DNA of 35,877 nucleotides, taken from positions 1-35,877 of the IMG/VR virus record IMGVR_UViG_3300025458_000009. One strand, written 5' to 3'. Both the position numbers and the translations under genes were made by a program. This DNA comes from a virus. Lineage: Duplodnaviria; Caudoviricetes. Below the pieces are notes generated by a model. That model worked only from the letters and a program-made list of their open reading frames with translations. It ran no database searches and was not told where the DNA came from. Below, in pieces: positions 1,441 to 30,483 of this stretch (the stretch's first letter is position 1; each line of letters starts with the position of its first letter).

Positions 1441-2042
1441 AAGAAGCCCGGATCACATGTAAGACGAGGACGGTGAAGATCGCCGACCTGGACATCGACA
1501 TGGTCAGAGGCGAGGTGGTGTTCATCCCTGTGGAGACGGCGAGCGCCTCTACGGATCTGCGGGTCATGCAGGGTGCCAAGGCCGTAGAGGTGTTCTACGT
1601 CCAGCGAAGCCAAGAAACACGGCAACACGCCCCCTCCGCCCCACCTGGCCGAGGCACCCCCCCGAAGAAGCGTAAGGCCATCGTGACCGTCAAAGGGCAC
1701 GAGATCGATGAGGACGCCCTCGCCGACAAGCTGATGGAGCGGCTGATGCCCTTCGTGGGCCAGCGGGTCTCTGGGGATGTCATGGAACGGATGCAGGCCA
1801 CCCTGGATGATTCCATGCAACAGATCCGGCAGGCCCTTCAGGGAACTGTAGGAGTCCGTCCAGGTGTGTCCCCCGGTACAATGGTAGATGCCCCCGAGAT
1901 TGCCTTTATCCCGGAAGGCATAGTAGGGGCCGTAGAGGGCACCGTCGAAGTACAAGAGGCGGAGTCAGAGGGATCCGGTGGGGTGGATGACGCCGCAGCG
2001 GCCTTGAAGGCGGCCCGTAAGCAGAAGAAGGAGACTCCATGA
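1437..2042 (+). CDS. Hypothetical protein, translationally coupled to the actin-like gene (candidate adaptor)
   Basis: ATGA overlaps at both ends and SD GGAG. Beta-rich N-terminus, Pro/Lys linker (PSAPPGRGTPPKKRK), helical middle, acidic tail ending in amphipathic VDDAAAALKAARKQKK. Confidence 0.75.
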   Translation: MKEARITCKTRTVKIADLDIDMVRGEVVFIPVETASASTDLRVMQGAKAVEVFYVQRSQETRQHAPSAPPGRGTPPKKRKAIVTVKGHEIDEDALADKLMERLMPFVGQRVSGDVMERMQATLDDSMQQIRQALQGTVGVRPGVSPGTMVDAPEIAFIPEGIVGAVEGTVEVQEAESEGSGGVDDAAAALKAARKQKKETP

Positions 2043-3061
2043 GCGACGATACCAAGAAGACAGCGGTGATTCCGGGCATCGGCCTGGACATCGGCACCAT
2101 GAACCTCGTGTCCGCCCGCAGAGGCGACAAGGGCATCACGACCAAGCGGATGCGGGACGTGTTCCTGGACCTGCCCACGTCGGCGAAGAAGATGCTCAAG
2201 CTCTCCGCCACCAGCTTCGTAGAGCGTGAGGACGACGTGCTGATCCTCGGCGACGCTGCTTTGGAACTGGCCAACGTGTTCGGACAGGAGGCCCGTCGGC
2301 CTTTGTCCGCTGGCATCGTGTCGGCGACAGAGTCCGAGAGCCTGGACGTGCTGGGCCTTCTCATCAAGGAGGTCCTGGGACCTCCTGCCGTGCCGGACGA
2401 GGTGTGCTACTACTCTGTCCCTGCGGAGCCCATCGACCAGCCGGACAGGGACATCATCTATCACCGGGAGGTGTTCCGCCGCATCGTGACGGAGTGCGGG
2501 TACAAGCCCTTCCCGGCCAACGAAGGCATGGGGATCATCTTCGCCGAGACGGCGAAGGAAGGGTTCTCCGGCGTGGCCCTTTCGTTCGGGAGCGGCATGA
2601 CCAACGTCGCCCTGGCGATCAATACCATCGAGGGCCTGATCTTCTCTGTGGCCCGTGGCGGTGACTGGATCGACCGTGGGGCCGCCAAGTCCGTAGGAGC
2701 GACGCAGGCCCGTGCCTGTGCGGCCAAGGAGAAGGGGATCGACCTGACCAAGCCGCAGGACAGGCTGGAAGAGGCCATCGCCCACTACTACCGGGCCCAC
2801 ATCGACTACGTGCTGGACCAGATCGGCCTCCGGTTCAAGTCCATTGAGGGCAAGTTCGACCTGCCCCGTGCGATCCCCGTGATCGTGTCCGGCGGGACGA
2901 GCCTCGCTGGTGGGTTCATGGAGTTCTTCACCAAGGTCTTCAATGAGCGGCGCAAGCGGTTCCCCATCGAGGTCAGTGAGATCCGACAGGCGGGCGAGCC
3001 CTTGAACGCTGTGGCCCACGGTCTGCTCATCCAGGCGATGCAGGAACACGAGGAGGACTGA
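2039..3061 (+). CDS. Actin-fold (ASKHA) ATPase, volactin-like
   Basis: SD AAGGAG. Phosphate-1 GLDIGTMN (~2081-2104), NEG, phosphate-2 SFGSGMT (~2582-2602), ARGGDWID, adenosine motif VSGGTS, C-terminal PLNAVAHG. The motif set matches my recollection of haloarchaeal volactin rather than MreB, FtsA or ParM. Confidence 0.85.
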   Translation: MSDDTKKTAVIPGIGLDIGTMNLVSARRGDKGITTKRMRDVFLDLPTSAKKMLKLSATSFVEREDDVLILGDAALELANVFGQEARRPLSAGIVSATESESLDVLGLLIKEVLGPPAVPDEVCYYSVPAEPIDQPDRDIIYHREVFRRIVTECGYKPFPANEGMGIIFAETAKEGFSGVALSFGSGMTNVALAINTIEGLIFSVARGGDWIDRGAAKSVGATQARACAAKEKGIDLTKPQDRLEEAIAHYYRAHIDYVLDQIGLRFKSIEGKFDLPRAIPVIVSGGTSLAGGFMEFFTKVFNERRKRFPIEVSEIRQAGEPLNAVAHGLLIQAMQEHEED

Positions 3062-5530: not shown

Positions 5531-5992
5531 ATGCCCCGGTTCGAATTTCAGTGTGAGTGCGGCGTCCGCTTTGAGGAGTCCGCCAAGTCCAAGGAGCACA
5601 GCACCCCGAAGCCTTGCCCCGAGTGTGGGACATTGGCTCCCCGCTGGATGCCCGAGGACGTCTCCGGTGTGTTCAACCCTGGCATGGACGGCACCCCCGG
5701 ACCCCAGAATACAGGGGTCGCCGAGATCGATACGGTGGCCGACCGGGCCATCGGCGAGTCCGCACAGCAGGGCTGGCAGGTCGCCGAAAAGCGGGTGGCG
5801 GACAAGCGGGAGATCATGGAAGAGACCGGCGTGGACGGGAAGGACCTATCCAAGAACCCCGACGGGTCCTACGGCGTTCTGAAGCCGGAGGAGCGGGGCG
5901 TCCACGACAGGGCACAGGCCATCAATAGTCTGGCTATGAAGCGCCTACAAGAGAGGAGGCAGAGTTCCTCTCCACCGACCGACGAGCGGTGA
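5531..5992 (+). CDS. FmdB-like zinc-ribbon protein
   Basis: SD GAGGAGG; N-terminal MPRFEFQCECG..FE...CPECG motif. Confidence 0.8.
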   Translation: MPRFEFQCECGVRFEESAKSKEHSTPKPCPECGTLAPRWMPEDVSGVFNPGMDGTPGPQNTGVAEIDTVADRAIGESAQQGWQVAEKRVADKREIMEETGVDGKDLSKNPDGSYGVLKPEERGVHDRAQAINSLAMKRLQERRQSSSPPTDER

Positions 5993-6095
5993 CCCGGGTA
6001 CGCACGGGCTAGACAGACGGGACGACAGACGGACCACTTACTTGGGCTGACGTTCCGCCCCTTCGAGGGCTGGTCAATGTGGACTGAGAAACCAA
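5981..6095 (+). promoter_or_regulatory. Conserved leader element, copy A (upstream of sheath)
   Basis: Shares ordered blocks with 13738-13866: GACGA..CGG.G, small hairpin ending GGGC, AGACAGACGGGACG (14 bp exact), TTG.GCTGA, GC hairpin, TGGT.A, ATGTG.ACTG. Confidence 0.6.
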
Positions 6096-6149
6096 CGGAC
6101 ACGGTGGTTGAACTGGAACCCGCTCCCGCGGCTTGAAGAGAGGTGCTAC

Positions 6150-9100
6150 ATGGCTTTCCCCGGATCCGCTTATGCTCCCCCTGGTGTTTTCACCCAGACA
6201 GAGTTCGAGAATCCTCTGGGTGCAGCCCTCCAGACCCTGAAGATCCCGGTCTTCATTGGAGAGGGCAGCGAACTACTCGTCCAGGAGAACCTGGAGGTGG
6301 TCCGTGGCTCCTCGTCCACCATCGACCAGCGCAGGGTTGATGAGGACATGACCGGACGGGCCGTTGCCAGCGTGTCCCAGACGGGACAGGTGACGCTCGG
6401 CGCTTTCAACGGTGTTCTGGACAAGATCCAGGTCCGACACTACCCCCTCGTGACGGGTGACGGTACGGGCACCACGACGAACAGCCGTGGCGACGTGACC
6501 GTGACTCTGGACGGCGAGCCCATCGTTGTCCGGGCAGTGACAGGAGCGACCGGCATCGTGCAGTTGGCGCAGGCCCCACAGCCTGGTCAGCAGGTCCTCT
6601 GCACGTACTACTACAACCGCACAGACACCTTGATCACGGACGACCTGTCCGATCAGGTGGACCCCGACCCGGCGGTCGTGCAGGGCCAGTCTGGCCTCTA
6701 CGACACGGATTCGCCCGGTAGCGTGGGCGGTGGCAGCGGTGTGGCAGAGACGGTTGACCTCCACGGTGACATCACGGACGCCAACGGCGCTGTGATCGTG
6801 GAGAACAACAACGTCCTGAACCTGGTGATCGATTCCACGACCTACCCCATCGTCATCCCGCCCCGCAGTGACTACACGATGGCTCAGATCGCTGCGGCGA
6901 TCACGGCGGCCAACGTAGGCACGCTGACGGCCTCGACGTTCACGAACAACTTTGGGCAGAGCGCCCTGCTCCTGAACGCCGACCACAGCATCGTAGTCAA
7001 CGAGGGCACGGCCAACGCCCTCCTCGGGCTCCTGACGGGGCAGGCGGACGCACGGGTCGCCACGTTCTACACCTTCCAGGGTCCCATCGTGGACGGCTCC
7101 AACGGCGGTGTGACGACGACCGACCCCTCGCACGTCACCGTCAAGGTCAACGGCACGCAGGTGATCCCGACCTCGGTCAGCGGTTCCACCCGCGCCGTGA
7201 CGCTGCCCCAGGCCCCCATCGCCGGGGCGACTGTGGCCATCACGTACTACTTCAACGCATGGCAGGACACGTTCGACTACCTGGCCAACATCAATGTCCA
7301 GGCCGTCACTCAGTGTGGCGACGTGCCGAACGGTTCGGGCTACACGCAGGCCAGCGACTTCATTCTCCAGGACGACAAGATCCTCTGGGGAACGGCGGTT
7401 ACGGTCGAGAGCGGCGTCAACTCGGTGGGTTCGGAGCGTTTCGACGACACCCAGGTGACCGGCACCCTGATCGACAACCGTACCTTCATGTCCGCCTGCA
7501 CCGCCGTGACAACCTCGAGCGGCGGCTCCTCCGTGGCAAGCGTCCGGGAGTTCACCCTGCCCTTGAGCCCCACGACGGGTAACGGCAGGAACACGCCTCT
7601 CGGGACGAGCCTCTTCCAGACGGTCAGCAACGGGCGCATCGACCTTCCGACCAACCGCCCCGACCTGGTAACCGCCTACTGGGGCTTCGACATGCAGGAC
7701 GCCCTCGACAGGGGTCCCGTCCAGGTCACGAAGGTCGAGGGCAACGTCATCACGCTGGACGAGAGTGTGCCGGTTGGGGCGACGGTGTTCGCCACGTTCT
7801 GGTACAACCAGCTTACGGACAACACCTACACCCTGACCTGTCTGAACCCTGGCCTGTCCGGGGCTGGCACCTACACGGTGGAAGACAGCGGCAGCAACGA
7901 CGTGTACGGGCCCATCTTCAACACCGGGACGAAGAGTGCGAACCTGATCGGTGTGACCATCGAGTTCCCCTCCGGTTCCGAGTTGAAGCCTGACCTGCGC
8001 TACGAGAGCGTGTCCGACGACGACTTTGAAGGCCCGGTCGAGGAGATCGTCACGGTCGAGTTCGGTAGCCGTGTGGCTGGTCCCGCCAAGTACACCGTAC
8101 CTGGCTACGGCCCCTACGAGTTCATCCCGGCCTTCTCGGACTTCTTCCGGGTTGCGATCCGCAGCACGGACATCTCGAACAGTGCCGGTCTGGACCTGAT
8201 GGACCCCTCGGGTTGGAACTCGGGCTTCTTCGCCAGCCTCCTGAGCGACGAGATCGATTACACGGGTGGCACCGGAGCCACCGTGGGCCAGTCCTACGAC
8301 GTGACGGCCTCCGAAGAGTTCATCATCACCACGGACGACGCCGACGTGCCGGTCAAGACGGGCACAGGGACGAACGTGGACATCAGCTTCTTCGCTGACG
8401 CCATCAACGAGGCCGCGGCAGGCCACACGGGTACGGCGGACGGTGGCGGGGTGGCTTCCGTAACCCTTGACCCGCTGTCCCGGTCTGACATCGACGACTT
8501 CTACGTGGGCTGGCGGGTGGTCATGGGCATGGGTGCCGCAGCGGCGGGCGACGCCCTTGCGGTCACCGCCTACAACGGCACCACCGGCGTAGCGACCATG
8601 GCAGCCAACTGGTCCGCACCGCCCATCATCACCGACCGCTACACGATCTTCAGGCCGGAGAACAGGGCGAGCCTCCAGACGGCGACCGCCTTCGACGGCC
8701 CGGTCGTGATCGTAGCCGACAGCCACGATCAGCTTGTGTTCCGCTACGTGGGCGACGTGTCCGGTCTGGGGGTAGTCAGCACGCTGACCCTGGCCGTGGG
8801 CACCTACGACACCCCGAACGCCCTGGCCGCACAGGTGCAGACGCAGATCGACGCAGCCATCGCCGGTTACGCCGCAGCGTTCGCCGGGGCCAACATCGAG
8901 TGCATCGCCAACTCGGACGCGAAGCTCGAGTTCCGCATCCAGCCCGCTGGTACGGACAGCGTTGCCTTCCTTCAGTTCCTGGATGCCGACACCGCCGCAG
9001 AGGACTTCGCTGTCCTGGCCGGTTTGGACACGGCAGCCGCAGTGTTCGGCGGGCAGGCGACCCTGGTCCACGGCCCCATCGCTCGGACCTACGAAGTGGC

Positions 9101-11426
9101 AGGGCCGGAGAAGCTGTACGACCGCCTGGTCCTCCGTAACCGGATCCTTCCGGGCTACGGTGGCAGCATGCACCCCGCCAACGTCCTGGAGCAGACGCTC
9201 CTGACGGTCAAGAGCGGCAACACCAAGGCCGGTATCAGCACGGGCGACTATGGCACCGCAGGGGCCGTGGCAACCGTCAGGGCCGCCACGGCGGTCGGCA
9301 CGATGGGCTTCTCGGGCGGTATGGACGCCAACGGTGAGCCCCTGGTCACGTTGTACGACGGGACGGGGACCATCGCCGCCAACGACGAGTTCAGCTTTGA
9401 GGTTGACGGTGTGCCGGTCACGGCGGCCTTCACCTCCACCCCTGCGGGCACGGCGACGCCTCTGGGTCCGGCAAGCGGAACGAGCAACGGCTCGATCCTC
9501 GACCAGATCATCGACGCCATCGCCGCAGTACCGGGCGCACCGTTCGGGGCCGCCCCCGCAGTGTTCGCCGACTTCCTCGTCCGGCAGGAAGGTGCGGGTA
9601 TCCGCATCACCTCCCAGCGGTTCGATAGTGCCAGCCGCATCACCATCGGGTCTGGGAGCGCCAACAGCGCCCTCGGGTTCACGGCGGGCGCAGTCAGCCT
9701 GCGGGTGCAGCCGACGGCCCGTCTGGTGGCCAGTGCGTTGATGAACAACTACAACACGGGCTCCTTTGCCGATTGGATGGCCTTCACGGCTGGCGGTCTG
9801 GCGACTGAGTTCGGTTCCTCGGCCTTGGCCTCTGTGGAGATCGACGCCGCCGGTCAGGAGTACCTCTACATGCAGGACGCCCCGGTCATCGTGGGCAACC
9901 TGGGAGCCTCCTCGACGGTTCAGGTTCTGGACACCCTCCAGAGCATCGCCAACGCCCTGCGGTACGACACGGGGCTTGGGGCGGTATCGGGTGCCGGAGC
10001 GGTAGGCGAAGCAGCCCTCGACGGCTACTTCGTGATTTCCTCGAACCCCAACGGTTCGGGTTCCGCCAATGACTCGATCCTGAACAATGGGGTCGGACAG
10101 GACGGCATCGTAGGTCAGACCTACCGGGACAAGGTGACGGGCCTCACCTTCACCATCCTCCCGAGGGGCTGGAGCACCAACCAGAACGGACCCTGGATCA
10201 GCTACCCGACGGCGGCTGCCACGTTCCGCATCGAGTGCTCGAAGACCTTCACCTGTGACGCCAACATCCCGCACAACGCCCTGCCTGGGACGGAGTTGCG
10301 GGTGGACAATACGGTCGGCGTGACGGCGGGCGACACCTGCCTGACCAAGACCTACGAGCGTGGCGGCCAAGAGCCCGCCATCGGCGACCTGTACTACGTG
10401 ACCTACAACTACACGAAGCCCAGCTTCGACACGGCCTTCTACACGAAGATCAGCAGCATTGAGGCGGCCTACGGTGCGGCCACGCCGGACAACCCGGTCA
10501 GCCTCGCCGCCTACCTGGCCATCCTCAACGGGGCGGTCCTCGTAGGGGTCAAGCAGGTACAGAAGGAAGAGGGCACGGAGCAGGCCAGCCTCGCCAGCTA
10601 CGTGGCCGCCATCGAGGAACTGGAGGGCGTCCTGCCAGGTCAGGCCCTGCCGGACATCATCACCCCGCTCAGGGGTGACAGCACCTCGCTGTACCAGATC
10701 CTCAAGCGTTCCAACGAGATCATGTCCAGCGTGCGCTACCGCAGCGAGCGGACGAGCATCTTGGGCGTGAGCGCCGGGACTACCCCGGAGCAGGTCGGGG
10801 ACATGGCGAGGACGCTGGCCTCGACCCGTATGCGGATCGTGTACCCGGACATCGTTGTCCTGACCCTTCAGGATCAGTTCAACAACACCAAGGAGTATCT
10901 GATCGACGGGACCTACGTGGCAGCCGCCCTGGCCGGTTCGGTTGTGAGCCCCAACGTGGACGTAGCGACCCCGTGGACGGGACGCCGCCTCGTAGGCTTC
11001 ACGCAGACCGGGCGCAAGCTGGACGCCGTGCAGCAGAACATCGTGGCAACCAAGGGTGTCACGGTCATGGAAGACCGGCCTCCGTACCTCCGGGTACGCC
11101 ACGGGCTGACGACCAACATGGCCAACATCCTGACCAAGATCCCGACGGTCATTCAGATCGCCGACGAGGTGCAGCGCCAGTCCAGGCAGACCCTGGAGGG
11201 CTTCATCGGGATCAAGTTCCTGCCGGGGATCCTGTCCCAGATCGAGGGACGGCTGGCGATGATGATGAAGGCCCTCGTGGCCGCCCAGATCATCAGCGCC
11301 TACCAGAACATCAAGGCCAACGTAGCCTCGGACGACCCGACGGTTGCTGAGGTGCAGGCGTACTACGCCCCGGTGTTCCCGCTCCTCTACATCCTCCTGA
11401 CGTTCCACCTCCGCAGCAGCCTGTAG
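6150..11426 (+). CDS. Contractile tail sheath protein, very large (~1758 aa)
   Basis: SD GAGAGG before ATG 6150. N-terminal YAPPGVFT and C-terminal sheath core (YVAAALAG...HGLTT...IADEVQRQSRQTLEGFIG...YAPVFPLLYILLTF). Central region of >1000 aa of inserted beta-rich domains. Confidence 0.9.
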   Translation: MAFPGSAYAPPGVFTQTEFENPLGAALQTLKIPVFIGEGSELLVQENLEVVRGSSSTIDQRRVDEDMTGRAVASVSQTGQVTLGAFNGVLDKIQVRHYPLVTGDGTGTTTNSRGDVTVTLDGEPIVVRAVTGATGIVQLAQAPQPGQQVLCTYYYNRTDTLITDDLSDQVDPDPAVVQGQSGLYDTDSPGSVGGGSGVAETVDLHGDITDANGAVIVENNNVLNLVIDSTTYPIVIPPRSDYTMAQIAAAITAANVGTLTASTFTNNFGQSALLLNADHSIVVNEGTANALLGLLTGQADARVATFYTFQGPIVDGSNGGVTTTDPSHVTVKVNGTQVIPTSVSGSTRAVTLPQAPIAGATVAITYYFNAWQDTFDYLANINVQAVTQCGDVPNGSGYTQASDFILQDDKILWGTAVTVESGVNSVGSERFDDTQVTGTLIDNRTFMSACTAVTTSSGGSSVASVREFTLPLSPTTGNGRNTPLGTSLFQTVSNGRIDLPTNRPDLVTAYWGFDMQDALDRGPVQVTKVEGNVITLDESVPVGATVFATFWYNQLTDNTYTLTCLNPGLSGAGTYTVEDSGSNDVYGPIFNTGTKSANLIGVTIEFPSGSELKPDLRYESVSDDDFEGPVEEIVTVEFGSRVAGPAKYTVPGYGPYEFIPAFSDFFRVAIRSTDISNSAGLDLMDPSGWNSGFFASLLSDEIDYTGGTGATVGQSYDVTASEEFIITTDDADVPVKTGTGTNVDISFFADAINEAAAGHTGTADGGGVASVTLDPLSRSDIDDFYVGWRVVMGMGAAAAGDALAVTAYNGTTGVATMAANWSAPPIITDRYTIFRPENRASLQTATAFDGPVVIVADSHDQLVFRYVGDVSGLGVVSTLTLAVGTYDTPNALAAQVQTQIDAAIAGYAAAFAGANIECIANSDAKLEFRIQPAGTDSVAFLQFLDADTAAEDFAVLAGLDTAAAVFGGQATLVHGPIARTYEVAGPEKLYDRLVLRNRILPGYGGSMHPANVLEQTLLTVKSGNTKAGISTGDYGTAGAVATVRAATAVGTMGFSGGMDANGEPLVTLYDGTGTIAANDEFSFEVDGVPVTAAFTSTPAGTATPLGPASGTSNGSILDQIIDAIAAVPGAPFGAAPAVFADFLVRQEGAGIRITSQRFDSASRITIGSGSANSALGFTAGAVSLRVQPTARLVASALMNNYNTGSFADWMAFTAGGLATEFGSSALASVEIDAAGQEYLYMQDAPVIVGNLGASSTVQVLDTLQSIANALRYDTGLGAVSGAGAVGEAALDGYFVISSNPNGSGSANDSILNNGVGQDGIVGQTYRDKVTGLTFTILPRGWSTNQNGPWISYPTAAATFRIECSKTFTCDANIPHNALPGTELRVDNTVGVTAGDTCLTKTYERGGQEPAIGDLYYVTYNYTKPSFDTAFYTKISSIEAAYGAATPDNPVSLAAYLAILNGAVLVGVKQVQKEEGTEQASLASYVAAIEELEGVLPGQALPDIITPLRGDSTSLYQILKRSNEIMSSVRYRSERTSILGVSAGTTPEQVGDMARTLASTRMRIVYPDIVVLTLQDQFNNTKEYLIDGTYVAAALAGSVVSPNVDVATPWTGRRLVGFTQTGRKLDAVQQNIVATKGVTVMEDRPPYLRVRHGLTTNMANILTKIPTVIQIADEVQRQSRQTLEGFIGIKFLPGILSQIEGRLAMMMKALVAAQIISAYQNIKANVASDDPTVAEVQAYYAPVFPLLYILLTFHLRSSL

Positions 11427-11436
11427 GACTACGGGC

Positions 11437-11471
11437 GGCCCCGTCTACGAACGGGACGGGGCCACCTTTTT
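11437..11471 (+). terminator. Probable rho-independent terminator after sheath
   Basis: Perfect 9-bp stem GGCCCCGTC/GACGGGGCC (11437-11445 / 11455-11463) followed by ACCTTTTT. Confidence 0.65.
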
Positions 11472-11520
11472 ATAGGAGACCGACATGAACGAGAAAGACC
11501 TGATCGCCTCTTGGGGCCCT
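11472..11520 (+). repeat. 49-bp imperfect direct repeat, copy 1 (RBS + first 12 codons)
   Basis: ATAGGAG....GACATG.AC.AGAAAGACCTGATCGCCTC.TGGGG.CC; 19-bp exact core at 11492-11510 matching 11844-11862. Confidence 0.9.
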
Positions 11521-11820
11521 ACCATCAAGACCGCCTCTTCGGCTCCGGTGACCCGCATCCGTAAGGTCATCTTCGAGGAGTTGAAGAAGATCAAGAAGAC
11601 CGTCCAGACGGGCCTCCCGAAGGGTTCCGTTGTGGAGGACCCGGACTTCGAGGACGGCATCCTCACCGTTGAGGTCGAGGTGAAGGGTGGGGACGGGATC
11701 GATCAGAACGCTGTGAAGCGGTTGGTCGGAAACCTCGTCGGAGGTAACCCTTCCAAGGTGACCCCGTTCAAGGATCTTGCCTCCAAGGGGAACATCCGCA
11801 TCCAGTGCGAGTGGAAGTAG
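11485..11820 (+). CDS. Hypothetical protein (111 aa) with shared leader MNEKDLIASWGP
   Basis: SD AGGAG; phage-like codon usage; N-terminus shared with the next ORF. Confidence 0.8.
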   Translation: MNEKDLIASWGPTIKTASSAPVTRIRKVIFEELKKIKKTVQTGLPKGSVVEDPDFEDGILTVEVEVKGGDGIDQNAVKRLVGNLVGGNPSKVTPFKDLASKGNIRIQCEWK

Positions 11821-11823
11821 GAC

Positions 11824-11872
11824 ATAGGAGCCTGACATGGACCAGAAAGACCTGATCGCCTCGTGGGGTCCG
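11824..11872 (+). repeat. 49-bp imperfect direct repeat, copy 2
   Basis: Matches 11472-11520. Confidence 0.9.
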
Positions 11873-12181
11873 ATGACGAGGATGGCGGGCAAGAAGAGCC
11901 CCCTTGTCAGGTTGAATGCGGCCAAAAGAGAGGCTGCGAAGCTCGTGGGTGATGCACACAACGCCATCCGCACGGATGCCCTGCGGGTTCTCCCCCACGG
12001 TTCGACTTGCAGCATCTCCGCCACACGGTACGGGGTGATGTTGCAGATCAGTGTCCCAGAGGCGGAGGGTGAGAACGCTCTGAAGGCTATCCGTAAGCTG
12101 TTCGGGACTGCTCCTGTGGACGGTATTCAGCCCATGCCCAAGCCTGGGCGCGCCTCGTACAACCTCAACTACACCCGCTAG
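11837..12181 (+). CDS. Hypothetical protein (114 aa) with shared leader MDQKDLIASWGP
   Basis: SD AGGAG; basic protein; N-terminus shared with the previous ORF. Confidence 0.8.
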   Translation: MDQKDLIASWGPMTRMAGKKSPLVRLNAAKREAAKLVGDAHNAIRTDALRVLPHGSTCSISATRYGVMLQISVPEAEGENALKAIRKLFGTAPVDGIQPMPKPGRASYNLNYTR

Positions 12182-12572: not shown

Positions 12573-12823
12573 GGAACCCTCCAGTTGTGATGCCCGTTAT
12601 GGGCCGTCGTTCTACTTCTCTACCCATCAACTCCAGAAAAGAACCCCATACGGGCCGAGAATCGACATGGCCTGCCCCGATATTCCGCCTCTTGAACATC
12701 CTAGATAGGGTTGGGTGGCTTTGTTTGCCCCCTACCCGCTCCTCCCTCGGGGCTCGTTGGATAGCCTATAACGACCCTGTAGTGAGAAGAGTCGCCGCAC
12801 CCGGCACTGACAGGAGGTCCCTC

Positions 12824-13697: not shown

Positions 13698-13726
13698 CGG
13701 ACAGGCTAGGCTGGTAAGATGATACT
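13698..13726 (+). promoter_or_regulatory. Possible sigma70-type promoter upstream of leader copy B
   Basis: CGGACA-17 bp-GATACT, with an overlapping extended -10 TGGTAAGAT (13712-13720), in an intergenic region. Weak match. Confidence 0.25.
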
Positions 13727-13737
13727 GCCAAGGGCGT

Positions 13738-13866
13738 GACGAAACGGAGCAGCCCAGTGGGCAGACAGACAGACGGGACGGACTGACAGAACCTTTTGCG
13801 CTGAACCCCACCCCTGCTGATGCGGGGGTTGGTTAGACCTATGCGGATGTGAACTGCCAGACCTAT
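13738..13866 (+). promoter_or_regulatory. Conserved leader element, copy B (upstream of tail chaperone/TMP block)
   Basis: AGACAGACGGGACG at 13767-13780, TTGCGCTGAAC at 13796-13806, CCCC/GGGG hairpin, ATGTGAACTG at 13847-13856; colinear with copy A. Confidence 0.6.
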
Positions 13867-13922
13867 CCCCTTTGTGCTGTTCAAGGCCCCTGCGAGTTGC
13901 TTCCTGACAAAGAGGGAAGCAC

Positions 13923-15158
13923 ATGGATCTGACACTTGAAGCCTTGGAACAGGCACTCTCCCCCATCACTGAGATCGGTACTGAAGAACTGACGTTCACC
14001 GTCAGCGGTACTGAGGTTTCCCTGCGGGTTATGTCGCCGGAGGAAGAGGGGGAGGTCCAACGGTATTCGGCTGGGCCTATGCCGGAGAATCCTTCCGCCG
14101 ATGAGGTCATGTCCTACCTGGAGCGGTTCAAGGTTGCTGTCCTCTCACACGCTATCGTTCAGATCGGCACCATGAACCTCCGGGACGTCAAGTTCGTGGA
14201 GACCCCCGAGAAGCTGGACAACGACAAGCCGGTCAAGGTCGCCAAGCACCTGGCCATGCGAGGGATTCTGGACAAGTGGCCTGGTGGGATGCGGACTACC
14301 GTGTTCCTCCGCTACTACGATCTGCTGGAACAGTTCGAGCGCAGGGTCGATGCAGCCATCGACTATGAGCCCCCGGACCTTGATGCCGAGATCGAGCGGG
14401 TTGAGGCCCACCTCAAGAAGCTCAAGGAGGCCAAGGAGCGCAAGTCCAAGGATGCCCAGGAGGGGTTCGCAAACCAGGTCAAGATGGTCGCAGAGGAAGC
14501 ACGGGCCGGGAAGGATGCCAAGAAGGCCCACCGCCAGAAGGCTGTAGAGGCGGCCCTGGGCACCCCACAGCCTGAACCGGCCCCCGAACCCCCACAGGTG
14601 GAAGAGCCTCCCCAGGAGGCCGCACAGCCCGCCACAGGGACACGGCAGCCCATCACTCCTGCCAGCGCCGTGCCTCCGGCACCCCCGGAACCGGCTCCGC
14701 CCGTCGAAGAGCCCCCTGCGCCACAGGAGGAGCCCGTCGTGGAAGAGCCCGTCGCCGAGGAGAAGCCTGCTGCCCCGCTACCGCCTCCGCCCGCCGACGA
14801 TTCCTTCGTGGACATGTCGGACCCGGACGCCATGCAGCAGGAAGCGGCACGGGAGACAGCCCGCCTCATGGAAATGCGCCGGACAGTTGGGAAGGGCGCA
14901 CCCACATCGAACCCTTCGGCACTGACAGCAGTGCATGATGCCGTCCGTGCGAGATCAGCGGAGCCGGACCCGGGGATCGATGCGGCGGAACAGATCGGCG
15001 AGCAGGACGGCAAGCCCGTGTTCAGGGCACCGGCTCAGGAACTGACCCGGACAGCGCACGCAGATCCACGGTCAGCCCCGCCTGTTCAGATCGATGCACC
15101 GGCACAGATGGATGCTTCTCGTAACCCGAGGTTCAAGGCCCCGCCCAAGGGACCGTAA
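13923..15158 (+). CDS. Probable tail assembly chaperone with coiled coil and Pro/Glu-rich linker
   Basis: Follows the tube gene. N-terminal VSLRVMSPEEE...LSHAIVQIG pattern, coiled coil, long PEPAPEPP low-complexity region, ends NPRFKAPP. Confidence 0.6.
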   Translation: MDLTLEALEQALSPITEIGTEELTFTVSGTEVSLRVMSPEEEGEVQRYSAGPMPENPSADEVMSYLERFKVAVLSHAIVQIGTMNLRDVKFVETPEKLDNDKPVKVAKHLAMRGILDKWPGGMRTTVFLRYYDLLEQFERRVDAAIDYEPPDLDAEIERVEAHLKKLKEAKERKSKDAQEGFANQVKMVAEEARAGKDAKKAHRQKAVEAALGTPQPEPAPEPPQVEEPPQEAAQPATGTRQPITPASAVPPAPPEPAPPVEEPPAPQEEPVVEEPVAEEKPAAPLPPPPADDSFVDMSDPDAMQQEAARETARLMEMRRTVGKGAPTSNPSALTAVHDAVRARSAEPDPGIDAAEQIGEQDGKPVFRAPAQELTRTAHADPRSAPPVQIDAPAQMDASRNPRFKAPPKGP

Positions 15159-29642: not shown

Positions 29643-30453
29643 GTTATGAGGCTATGCTCCATAGGATAAGTTTGTGGTTGGGGTAAAGATGGGCGCACGA
29701 AAATTCAAAGTAGACGAGATGGTGGGGCAGAAGTTTGGGTTCCTGACACTGAAGGGTCCCGCAGATCCCGTTAAGGGCCGAGCACAGGCGACTTTCCTGT
29801 GTGGTTGTGGGGCTGTTACCGTGAAGGGCCTATCCCGGGTGGTGAGTGGGCACACAAAGAGTTGTGGTTGCGCCAGGGGTGCCTCTTGGAGGGCACTTAC
29901 CTTGGAAGAGATGAGAGGCAAGCGGTTTGGCAGGCTGGTGGTGGTCGGAAGGAATCCTACAGGAACTTCTGTAGGTGGGACTCGTTGGGATTGTCTTTGT
30001 GATTGTGGGAATGGGAAGACAGTGGCCCTTTCAAACCTGCACAATGGCACGACCCAGAGTTGTGGATGTTTTGCATTAGAATCCTCCTCTAGGAACGGGA
30101 AGAAAAGGAAAGGGGTACGAGCGCATAACTGGAAAGGTGTGGGGGATATTTCCGCTTCCTTTTGGGGTCAGATCCTGAATGGTGCTCAGACTCGAAATTT
30201 GGCGTGTACGATCTCACACCAATATGTGTGGGATTTGTTCCTGCAACAAAACAGGAAATGCGCTCTGACAGGGGTTTCTCTTCGATTCCCTCTGATAGGG
30301 GAGCGTTCCGGTACCGCATCCCTTGATAGGGTAGACAGTACGAAGGGGTACGAGGCCGGGAACGTGCAGTGGTTAGACAAGCGTGTTCAGCAAATGAAAT
30401 GGAACTTGAAACAAGAAGAATTCTTGGCTCTTTGCCGTGCTATCACAGAGCAT
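29613..30453 (+). mobile_element. Homing-endonuclease-like insertion (841 bp) at the 3' end of the spike gene
   Basis: Flanked by two versions of the spike C-terminus: GAKAHVIGS* (29613-29642) and GAKGHIVGA* (30454-30483). GGAGC.AAGG repeat at both junctions. AT-richer than its flanks. Confidence 0.75.
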
Positions 30454-30483
30454 GGAGCGAAGGGTCACATTGTGGGGGCGTAA
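29689..30483 (+). CDS. HNH-family (DRID-type) endonuclease with two CxCG...SCGC modules
   Basis: GQKFGFLT..CGCG..TKSCGC and GKRFGRLVV..WDCLCDCGN..TQSCGC repeats; QNRKCALTG...SLDRVDSTKGYEAGNVQW. Start is 29689 (ATG) or 29674 (GTG). Confidence 0.85.
   Translation: MGARKFKVDEMVGQKFGFLTLKGPADPVKGRAQATFLCGCGAVTVKGLSRVVSGHTKSCGCARGASWRALTLEEMRGKRFGRLVVVGRNPTGTSVGGTRWDCLCDCGNGKTVALSNLHNGTTQSCGCFALESSSRNGKKRKGVRAHNWKGVGDISASFWGQILNGAQTRNLACTISHQYVWDLFLQQNRKCALTGVSLRFPLIGERSGTASLDRVDSTKGYEAGNVQWLDKRVQQMKWNLKQEEFLALCRAITEHGAKGHIVGA

Follow-up and report, generated by a model that had tools for sequence, protein, structure and literature searches.

A conserved two-unit RNA leader family before the tail sheath and tail assembly chaperone genes of jumbo phages, with a candidate role as a protein-bound translational operator

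The window, that is, the whole stretch of 35,877 nucleotides analysed here, covers, according to its gene annotation, tail genes of a large phage with a contractile tail; the genomes of its relatives reach 380-620 kb. It contains, in this order, a volactin-like gene, a head-closure-like gene, a zinc-ribbon gene, the tail sheath gene, a putative tube-like gene (so called from its position alone) and a long operon starting at 13923 (Table 1). Two leaders are considered: copy A, before the sheath gene, and copy B, at the head of the long operon. The final codons of the zinc-ribbon gene overlap the promoter-like site and the first hairpin of leader A. The predicted structure of the first gene of the operon matched the HK97 tail assembly chaperone 2ob9 (Z 8.0, rmsd 3.5, 99 aligned, the next unrelated rows being below 5), and Foldseek found a Rhodococcus phage tail assembly chaperone (E 1.1e-05) and other viral ones. 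On this predicted structure, copy B precedes a gene for a tail assembly chaperone (TAC).

Other features of the region were also noted. The phage volactin-family actin gene (2039-3061; PF25216, E 4e-72) has remained close to the sheath gene in many relatives. Directly after the sheath terminator (11485-12181) there is a pair of small paralogous genes whose starts are almost identical (88% over 48 nt), and an HNH/endonuclease VII-like gene is found within the tail operon (29674-30483). In L005 (9700-10000), L034 and L068, an inserted ORF, by eye likely a homing endonuclease, separates leader A from the sheath start. A recurrent promoter-like motif, (YAATA)-N6-CTATA-N8-14-GTAG, precedes late genes of the clade, including both window sites of Table 1. 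Metatranscriptome contigs from three RNA runs (share 0.05-0.06) gave scattered pieces of 150-400 nt only, leader A being uncovered; in RNA run X19, 23 changes, all of them C>T, were seen at 6290-6714 and 10181-10334, probably as a library chemistry artefact.

Table 1. Features in and around leader copies A and B (positions within the window)
Position	Strand	Feature	Basis or remark
5531..5992	+	Zinc-ribbon (FmdB-like) gene	Pfam PF09723, E 5.9e-08, just under cut-off; translation
5923..5953	+	Putative late promoter CAATA-N6-CTATG-N10-AAGAG	Similar sites in relatives
5951..5972	+	Predicted 5' hairpin H0 of copy A	Fold; not a conserved anti-SD
5993..6008	+	Helix H1 of unit 1, copy A	Bulged-U type in many relatives; bulge absent here
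6011..6040	+	NRAY tract 1, copy A; contains the 14-mer	Sequence; repeat spacing
6041..6049	+	Box M1, copy A, CUUGGGCUG	Invariant G, C, U (35 aligned modules)
6055..6073	+	Bulged-U hairpin P2, copy A (CC-G ... C-U-GG)	Covariation
6074..6106	+	NRAY tract 2, copy A; contains ATGTGGACTG	Repeat spacing
6107..6115	+	Box M2, copy A, GUUGAACUG	Overlooked by the earlier note
6120..6131	+	Predicted small hairpin H3	Fold
6138..6143	+	Shine-Dalgarno (SD) of the sheath gene	Sequestered no more than controls
6150..11426	+	Tail sheath gene, 1758 aa	phrog_2839, E 8.3e-30; tblastn to annotated sheath of Tunturi_5
11437..11463	+	Terminator-like hairpin 3' of the sheath gene	In 10/40 relatives, so not conserved
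12764..12782	+	Promoter-like site GCCTATA-N8-GTAG, 5' of the tube-like gene (ATG 12824)	Read from sequence
13713..13720	+	Putative sigma-70-like -10 site of leader B, GGTAAGAT	Recurs in B relatives; missed by two-hexamer scan
13746..13762	+	Copy B, long-range helix P1, 5' arm; its outer part is the anti-anti-SD	Pairing tests
13763..13803	+	Copy B, tract 1 and box M1 (13795-13803)	Repeat spacing; sequence
13808..13832	+	Copy B, bulged-U hairpin P2 (CC-A ... U-U-GG)	Covariation
13833..13879	+	Copy B, tract 2 and box M2 (13871-13879)	Repeat spacing; sequence
13886..13904	+	Copy B, 3' arm of P1	13896-13904 = anti-SD strand common to both folds
13912..13921	+	Copy B, SD strand, pairs with anti-SD in OFF fold	Fold
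13923..15158	+	Tail assembly chaperone gene (TAC; N-terminal 160 aa)	AF2 pLDDT 83

Relatives were collected by sheath searches (56 viral and 57 metagenome loci) and with a chaperone profile (46 loci), used instead of the single chaperone protein, which had matched itself alone. After deduplication, 64 A and 42 B leaders were parsed; a box and a bulged hairpin were recognised in 49 of these 106, of which 35 were kept and 14 dropped as doubtful parses, and L030 was left out of the record-level searches. The full module occurs mostly within one clade of 29 rows (SH-aLRT 99, in a quick tree), and many outer relatives have short leaders without it.

Sequence comparison indicates that each leader consists of two tandem units, each of them comprising a helix, an NRAY tract of 31-39 nt and a box, YUUGNGCU. 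An earlier note on this DNA had described conserved blocks in both leaders, and these are present, although several structural details have been corrected. Thus, the shared 14-mer (6011-6024 and 13767-13780), the TTG(G/C)GCTG block (now box M1 of each copy) and the ATGTG(G/A)ACTG block were verified, as was the terminator-like hairpin after the sheath, but the block GACGA(G/AA)CGG is, by eye, not kept in relatives. The short GCCC..GGGC hairpin belongs, in copy B, to the 5' arm of a long-range helix; the second tract and second box of each leader had been overlooked; and the extent given for leader A, 5981..6149, marks a real element, whose start, however, is probably near 5955. The tract described as a GAC repeat also exists, but its unit is the 4-nt NRAY and not a GAC triplet. 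In the tracts of the kept leaders, RAY follows RAY at a spacing of 4 in 170 cases, compared with 14 in shuffled sequences; the values are 16 versus 15 for a spacing of 3, and 20 versus 14 for a spacing of 5. Taking into account this period of 4 nt, the tract is not TRAP-like, as had been suggested. The TRAP operator, likewise a series of periodic single-stranded repeats, is formed by (G/U)AG triplets, or NAG units, at a 5-nt period.

The first letter of the repeat is free, and the tracts are A-rich and U-poor. The distance from the hairpin to the second box was 31-39 nt in all 31 leaders with a scored second box, and the G, C and U of the box are invariant in the 35 aligned modules. Pairing between boxes and tracts was considered as the main structure and dropped: M1 with tract 2 was no better than shuffles (-4.9/-6.1 versus -6.6/-6.3), and M2 with tract 1 slightly better in copy B (-8.4 versus -6.9). 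When the two leaders were shuffled with their dinucleotides kept, a common run of 14 appeared in 1 of 2000 trials (a post hoc comparison); by itself, this match is unremarkable window-wide, since the window holds 42 repeated 14-mers. As copy A moreover folds no better than shuffles (z +0.52), the case rests on the relatives.

Two types of divergent leader were found. The sheath leaders L053, L054, L112-L116, L136 and L153 are reduced, having a GUGAGCUUU box, an unbulged hairpin and a second box without a tract, and belong to a clade in which the phage protein DUF5659, discussed below, is unmatched. Variant tracts with a period of 5-6 nt and a CG-closed hairpin are present in the leaders of the DUF5659 gene in L245, L250, L254, L257, L259 and L261, and in the sheath leaders L036 and L038.

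The conserved hairpin, P2, has the form CC-N-stem-N'-U(bulge)-GG. The earlier note had recognised, in both leaders, GC hairpins of changed sequence and kept pairing, but not the outer CC/GG pairs or the bulge. In an alignment of 52 hits, fitted to the model and made of related sequences, which inflates the signal, 99.6% of 254 cells were paired and 41 had changed on both sides (0/500 shuffles), with slid controls being paired in 34-62%. The pair above the bulge is G-C in copy A and A-U in copy B of the window, and all four Watson-Crick types occur among relatives (UA 13, GC 9, CG 9, GU 2, UG 1 and AU 1 in 35 hand-kept modules); the bulge base is U in 31 modules and C in 4, and the loops vary freely. 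Internal wobbles comprise eight G-U and no A-C, so that the conserved entity is the + strand RNA. This is almost certainly a real RNA element, and the claim of a cis-acting RNA made in the earlier note is supported by the covariation of P2 and by the strand that its wobbles fix.

A covariance model was trained on 11 sequences (10 B and 1 A), and the search that the earlier note had proposed was run with it. The two sites found in the window are copies A and B. Both copies are the top two matches in the complete genome G001, where, as in the window, there are no further copies; in G002 only B is matched, and in G003 and G004 nothing is matched under E 0.3. In 31 further records, with matches placed by tblastn or by the coordinates of the loci, 14/14 at E<0.02 (four of them training sequences or their twins) and 21/22 at E<0.05 fell in A or B leaders. 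A pattern scan placed 10 of 13 viral matches in these leaders. In bacterial genomes it gave 21 matches, of which 19 have no tract and not one adjoins a gene for a sheath, a chaperone, a tube-like protein or DUF5659; they are read as chance rather than as true copies. The leader of the tube-like gene has no module and no covariance-model match. On these sequence matches, copies A and B are members of a family of RNA leaders that is conserved within a clade of jumbo phages, and the module is not a general late-gene signal.

The earlier note had recognised no known RNA family, and this was borne out: cmscan against Rfam 15 gave no match in the window at the gathering score, and the best match over six loci (E 2.4) lay outside the leader. 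Kink-turns have a 3-nt bulge followed by GA and, on the opposite strand, a GA that precedes the C-stem; here, GG-NNN-GA occurs in 21/35 modules but GA before CC in only 2/35. The tracts are not GGA-specific as CsrA/Rsm sites are (AGA 118, GGA 93, CGA 63, UGA 61), and no phage CsrA, Hfq or NusB was detected in the five records searched. In the literature searched by topic, no description of the family was found; there was no match in the tables of PMC10690425, a study of about 8,500 DNA-virus candidates that may have the motif among the unnamed ones, nor in the main text of bioRxiv 10.64898/2026.10.21.760802. Thus, the leader family is uncatalogued, fails every named family tested, and, from its sequence, would work like a protein-bound translational operator of the gp32/Com kind.

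The two copies differ in their relation to the ribosome-binding site (RBS). In copy A, the opening cost of the RBS is 6.2, and is lowered by the upstream leader in just 1/28 leaders; no conserved long-range pairing was found (own arms better in 16/27, anti-SD in 2/27), and an anti-SD switch through H0 was ruled out, since the H0 pairing is not conserved. As judged from these predictions, copy A has no conserved switch, its units are open and its ribosome site is free. Copy B folds better than shuffles (z -3.60), and its predicted switching was analysed in the B leaders that carry the module (n=29, without the divergent L035 and L128). In these, the RBS is covered by a fold of the final 55 nt, with a median local opening cost of 12.7 kcal/mol (at least 5 in 29/29), compared with 5.6 kcal/mol in control starts (n=83); in the full leader this median falls to 6.9 kcal/mol, the cost being lower in 27/29. 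The arms of the helix P1 pair better with their own partners than with foreign ones in 26/29 (-28.9 versus -21.8), although this is not the case for copy B of the window itself (-24.6 versus -25.2), and P1 and the SD hairpin overlap by at least 4 nt in 28/29. RNAalifold recovered the outer P1 unprompted from 17 leaders, with two compensated pairs and a weak total consensus energy (-1.93), and the anti-SD duplex test, run on truncated segments, was significant in only 11/29. Two competing folds, one with a hidden and one with a free RBS, as expected of a protein-responsive switch, are therefore predicted in copy B and not in copy A, and copy B is predicted to be a switch in which the outer part of P1 captures the anti-SD strand from the SD. 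Control by the leader probably acts on translation.

In the lineages lacking module B, a sigma-70-like site and one hairpin lie 5' of the chaperone gene, which starts with GTG or TTG (L044, L047, L048, L053, L054, L116, L153 and L160); module-bearers start with ATG.

Such a system might operate without a dedicated protein, the unpaired tracts of about 36 nt acting as ribosome standby or S1 landing sites and copy B as a folding-kinetics switch in which P1 forms before the SD hairpin. The constant length of the tracts (31-39 nt), their A-rich, U-poor composition, the small difference between the ON and OFF folds of B (0.2-11 kcal/mol) and the open RBS of copy A all agree with this idea. However, it would need neither a strict 4-nt period, nor an invariant box, nor the repetition of the bulged hairpin before the DUF5659 gene, and we regard it as improbable.

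This last hairpin draws attention to DUF5659 (PF18903), present in G001-G004 and not in G005. Its gene is located 12-32 kb upstream of the sheath, and hence that of the window's phage would lie outside this fragment. A single bulged hairpin ends 0-16 nt before the DUF5659 SD, often just after a late-promoter-like site; similar TATA-N-GTAG/AGAG sites precede the sheath, tube-like and DUF5659 genes of relatives, a strict regular expression retrieving only 15/64 A leaders. The strict hairpin was found in 11 of 64 distinct DUF5659 leaders, versus a shuffle mean of 2.2 (maximum 5) and 10/367 control SD sites, and a loose one in 21 of 64 (shuffle mean 9.6, maximum 17); the other 53 leaders fail the strict test, DUF5659 being widespread. 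When records are compared, the hairpin precedes the DUF5659 ribosome site in 12/17 module-bearing records and in 0/12 others, counts that are not independent, as module-bearers are largely one clade and DUF5659-less records two lineages, and in which G009, G010 and G016 are fragments and "no module" means, for G026 and G028-G033, absence of a model match only. In G003, G006, G007 and G019 the gene lacks the hairpin, and in G018 the hairpin is identical (19 nt) to that of its own copy B. It resembles the MS2/PP7 coat hairpins in being a bulged hairpin by an SD, but here the bulge is U instead of A and the loop is not conserved.

DUF5659 was matched in 22 of 31 records. It is unmatched in the near-complete G005 (92% complete) and G008 (90%), both devoid of tract and bulged hairpin; in the fragments G009, G010 and G016, which lack them where seen; in Tunturi_5 and G022; and in the module-bearing fragments G012 and G021, which end before the expected place. 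Box M persists where DUF5659 is unmatched, and thus a second factor probably reads it. The protein is modelled as beta-alpha-beta-beta-alpha-alpha (pLDDT 85), with conserved R, K and Y residues and a nearly neutral net charge (median +1). Fold searches gave nothing at E<=0.001 with Foldseek and a best Z of 3.9, which does not imply a new fold; the best PDB sequence match had E 0.63, the Atlas returned DUF5659 clusters only, a trimer prediction scored 0.02, and the literature search yielded no paper on 'DUF5659'. In G001, a second divergent DUF5659-like gene (L181:779-1090), recognised by eye and without a Pfam match, lies two ORFs downstream, possibly encoding a partner subunit. From its co-occurrence with the module, DUF5659 is the likely candidate binder of the leader.

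The survival of box M without DUF5659 also means that a universal factor may read it, the obvious candidate being a NusG paralog, and leads to the antitermination proposed in the earlier note. According to this proposal, the promoter-near box M and hairpin would load the NusG paralog or host Nus factors in a nut/LoaP-like manner, perhaps coupling a ribosome. An NGN+KOW NusG paralog, a feature shared with LoaP systems and encoded outside the window fragment, exists in G001, G002 and G004 and in 20/31 records (7/7 near-complete), with or without the module. In G001 (L306:575-1836, 31.4-32.7 kb), L304 and L305, a conserved operon encodes a dnaX-like protein, this paralog (about 190 aa) and a double sigma-region-4 protein. 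The order box-spacer-hairpin mirrors lambda nut, in which, as in rrn boxA-boxB and Bacillus LoaP leaders, a promoter-near box is followed by a spacer and a hairpin, with a NusG paralog in the case of LoaP (PMC2724277, PMC12691694 and PMC7819879). The box positions G2, C5 and U6 coincide with boxA, whose mutations boxA5 and boxA16 affect G2 and C5 (PMC2724277); LoaP requires a small leader hairpin (PMC12691694); and copy B heads an operon of more than 22 kb.

Against this, only G2, C5 and U6 of the (C/U)GCUCUU(U)A boxA are kept, with CUUU in 7/70 boxes and U4 in 3/70, and, compared with the nut and boxA sites (PMC2724277, PMC7819879), the leader box lacks CUUUA. Terminator-like sites were found in 0/35 leaders, the post-sheath one is restricted to 10/40 relatives, and those in the B operon equal shuffles (13 versus 13.1, both strands). 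The conserved part is the stem-bulge and the loop is free, whereas LoaP uses a UNCG loop (PMC12691694). Leaders of the LoaP type also have an intrinsic terminator. Phages with neither tract nor bulged hairpin (G005, G008-G010) retain the NusG paralog, NusB is absent in 5/5 records, the tail gene after the sheath is preceded by a promoter-like site of its own, and the folds that link copy B to its SD are left unexplained. Taken together, antitermination is less likely than translational control, and we consider it unlikely.

Another binder or role has also to be weighed: the adjacent zinc-ribbon protein might act as Com of phage Mu does, a tail protein might regulate itself, or the leader might serve mRNA stability or localisation. 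A CxC..CxxC gene lies directly upstream of A, and Com is a zinc-finger translational activator (PMC6483171). However, the zinc-ribbon gene also occurs in relatives that lack the module (L053, L054, L113, L115, L116 and L136), and autoregulation by the product is disfavoured by the two different products behind A and B. This set of options is very improbable.

The reading to which we give a slight preference over all others combined is consequently that of a translational operator to which a phage protein, most likely DUF5659, would bind, and the multimeric RNA-binding protein for tail output suggested in the earlier note comes close to it, except for the TRAP-like repeat; that interpretation is thus partly supported overall. 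Its nearest relative is the T4 gene 32 operator, where a phage protein binds cooperatively to a structured nucleation site and the unstructured repeats that follow it (PMC3014915). Here, in contrast, the nucleation site would be a bulged hairpin and not a pseudoknot, the repeat is NRAY and not UUAA(A), the arrangement is doubled, the tracts do not extend over the RBS but stop 35-55 nt short of the start codon, and other genes would be controlled. Copy B resembles Mu Com-mom, in which a small phage protein binds an upstream hairpin and is proposed to open a start-hiding structure (PMC6483171), but in our case a long-range anti-anti-SD helix surrounds two units, the candidate binder has no zinc finger, and copy A is uninhibited.

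It can be proposed that DUF5659, produced from a late promoter, would recognise the bulged hairpin and spread along the 4-nt repeats. On copy B, it would hold the long helix and open the chaperone ribosome site, with the late switch-on of an mRNA made from a host-type promoter; on copy A, it would raise or steady sheath translation without a switch; and on its own mRNA it would block the ribosome. We infer in this scheme the promoters, the binding and its agent, as well as the sign of control and the function of A; these last two are its weakest steps, activation being moderately favoured as the sign. In a more speculative, rather unlikely extension, DUF5659 would be an RNA-binding protein of a type not described before and would govern a new kind of phage regulon, nucleating on the bulged-U helix and polymerising on a stretch of fixed length with about nine 4-nt repeats; a two-fold symmetric RNA loop would measure its concentration and flip the long-range helix. 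The stoichiometry of the tail would then follow from one part used in three ways, open before the sheath gene, clasped before the chaperone operon and single before its own gene, and the NusG paralog would read the box, thereby linking this control to transcription.

To our knowledge, the timing and balance of the hundreds of tail subunits of phages of 400-500 kb are little understood. The analysis defines an RNA family, predicts an ON/OFF switch for the chaperone operon and puts forward two candidate proteins, DUF5659 and the NusG paralog. All parts are small and could be studied in vitro or in E. coli, with no need for the uncultured host. If the proposal is true, a compact protein-triggered translational ON switch would be at hand, which would also be a useful synthetic part.
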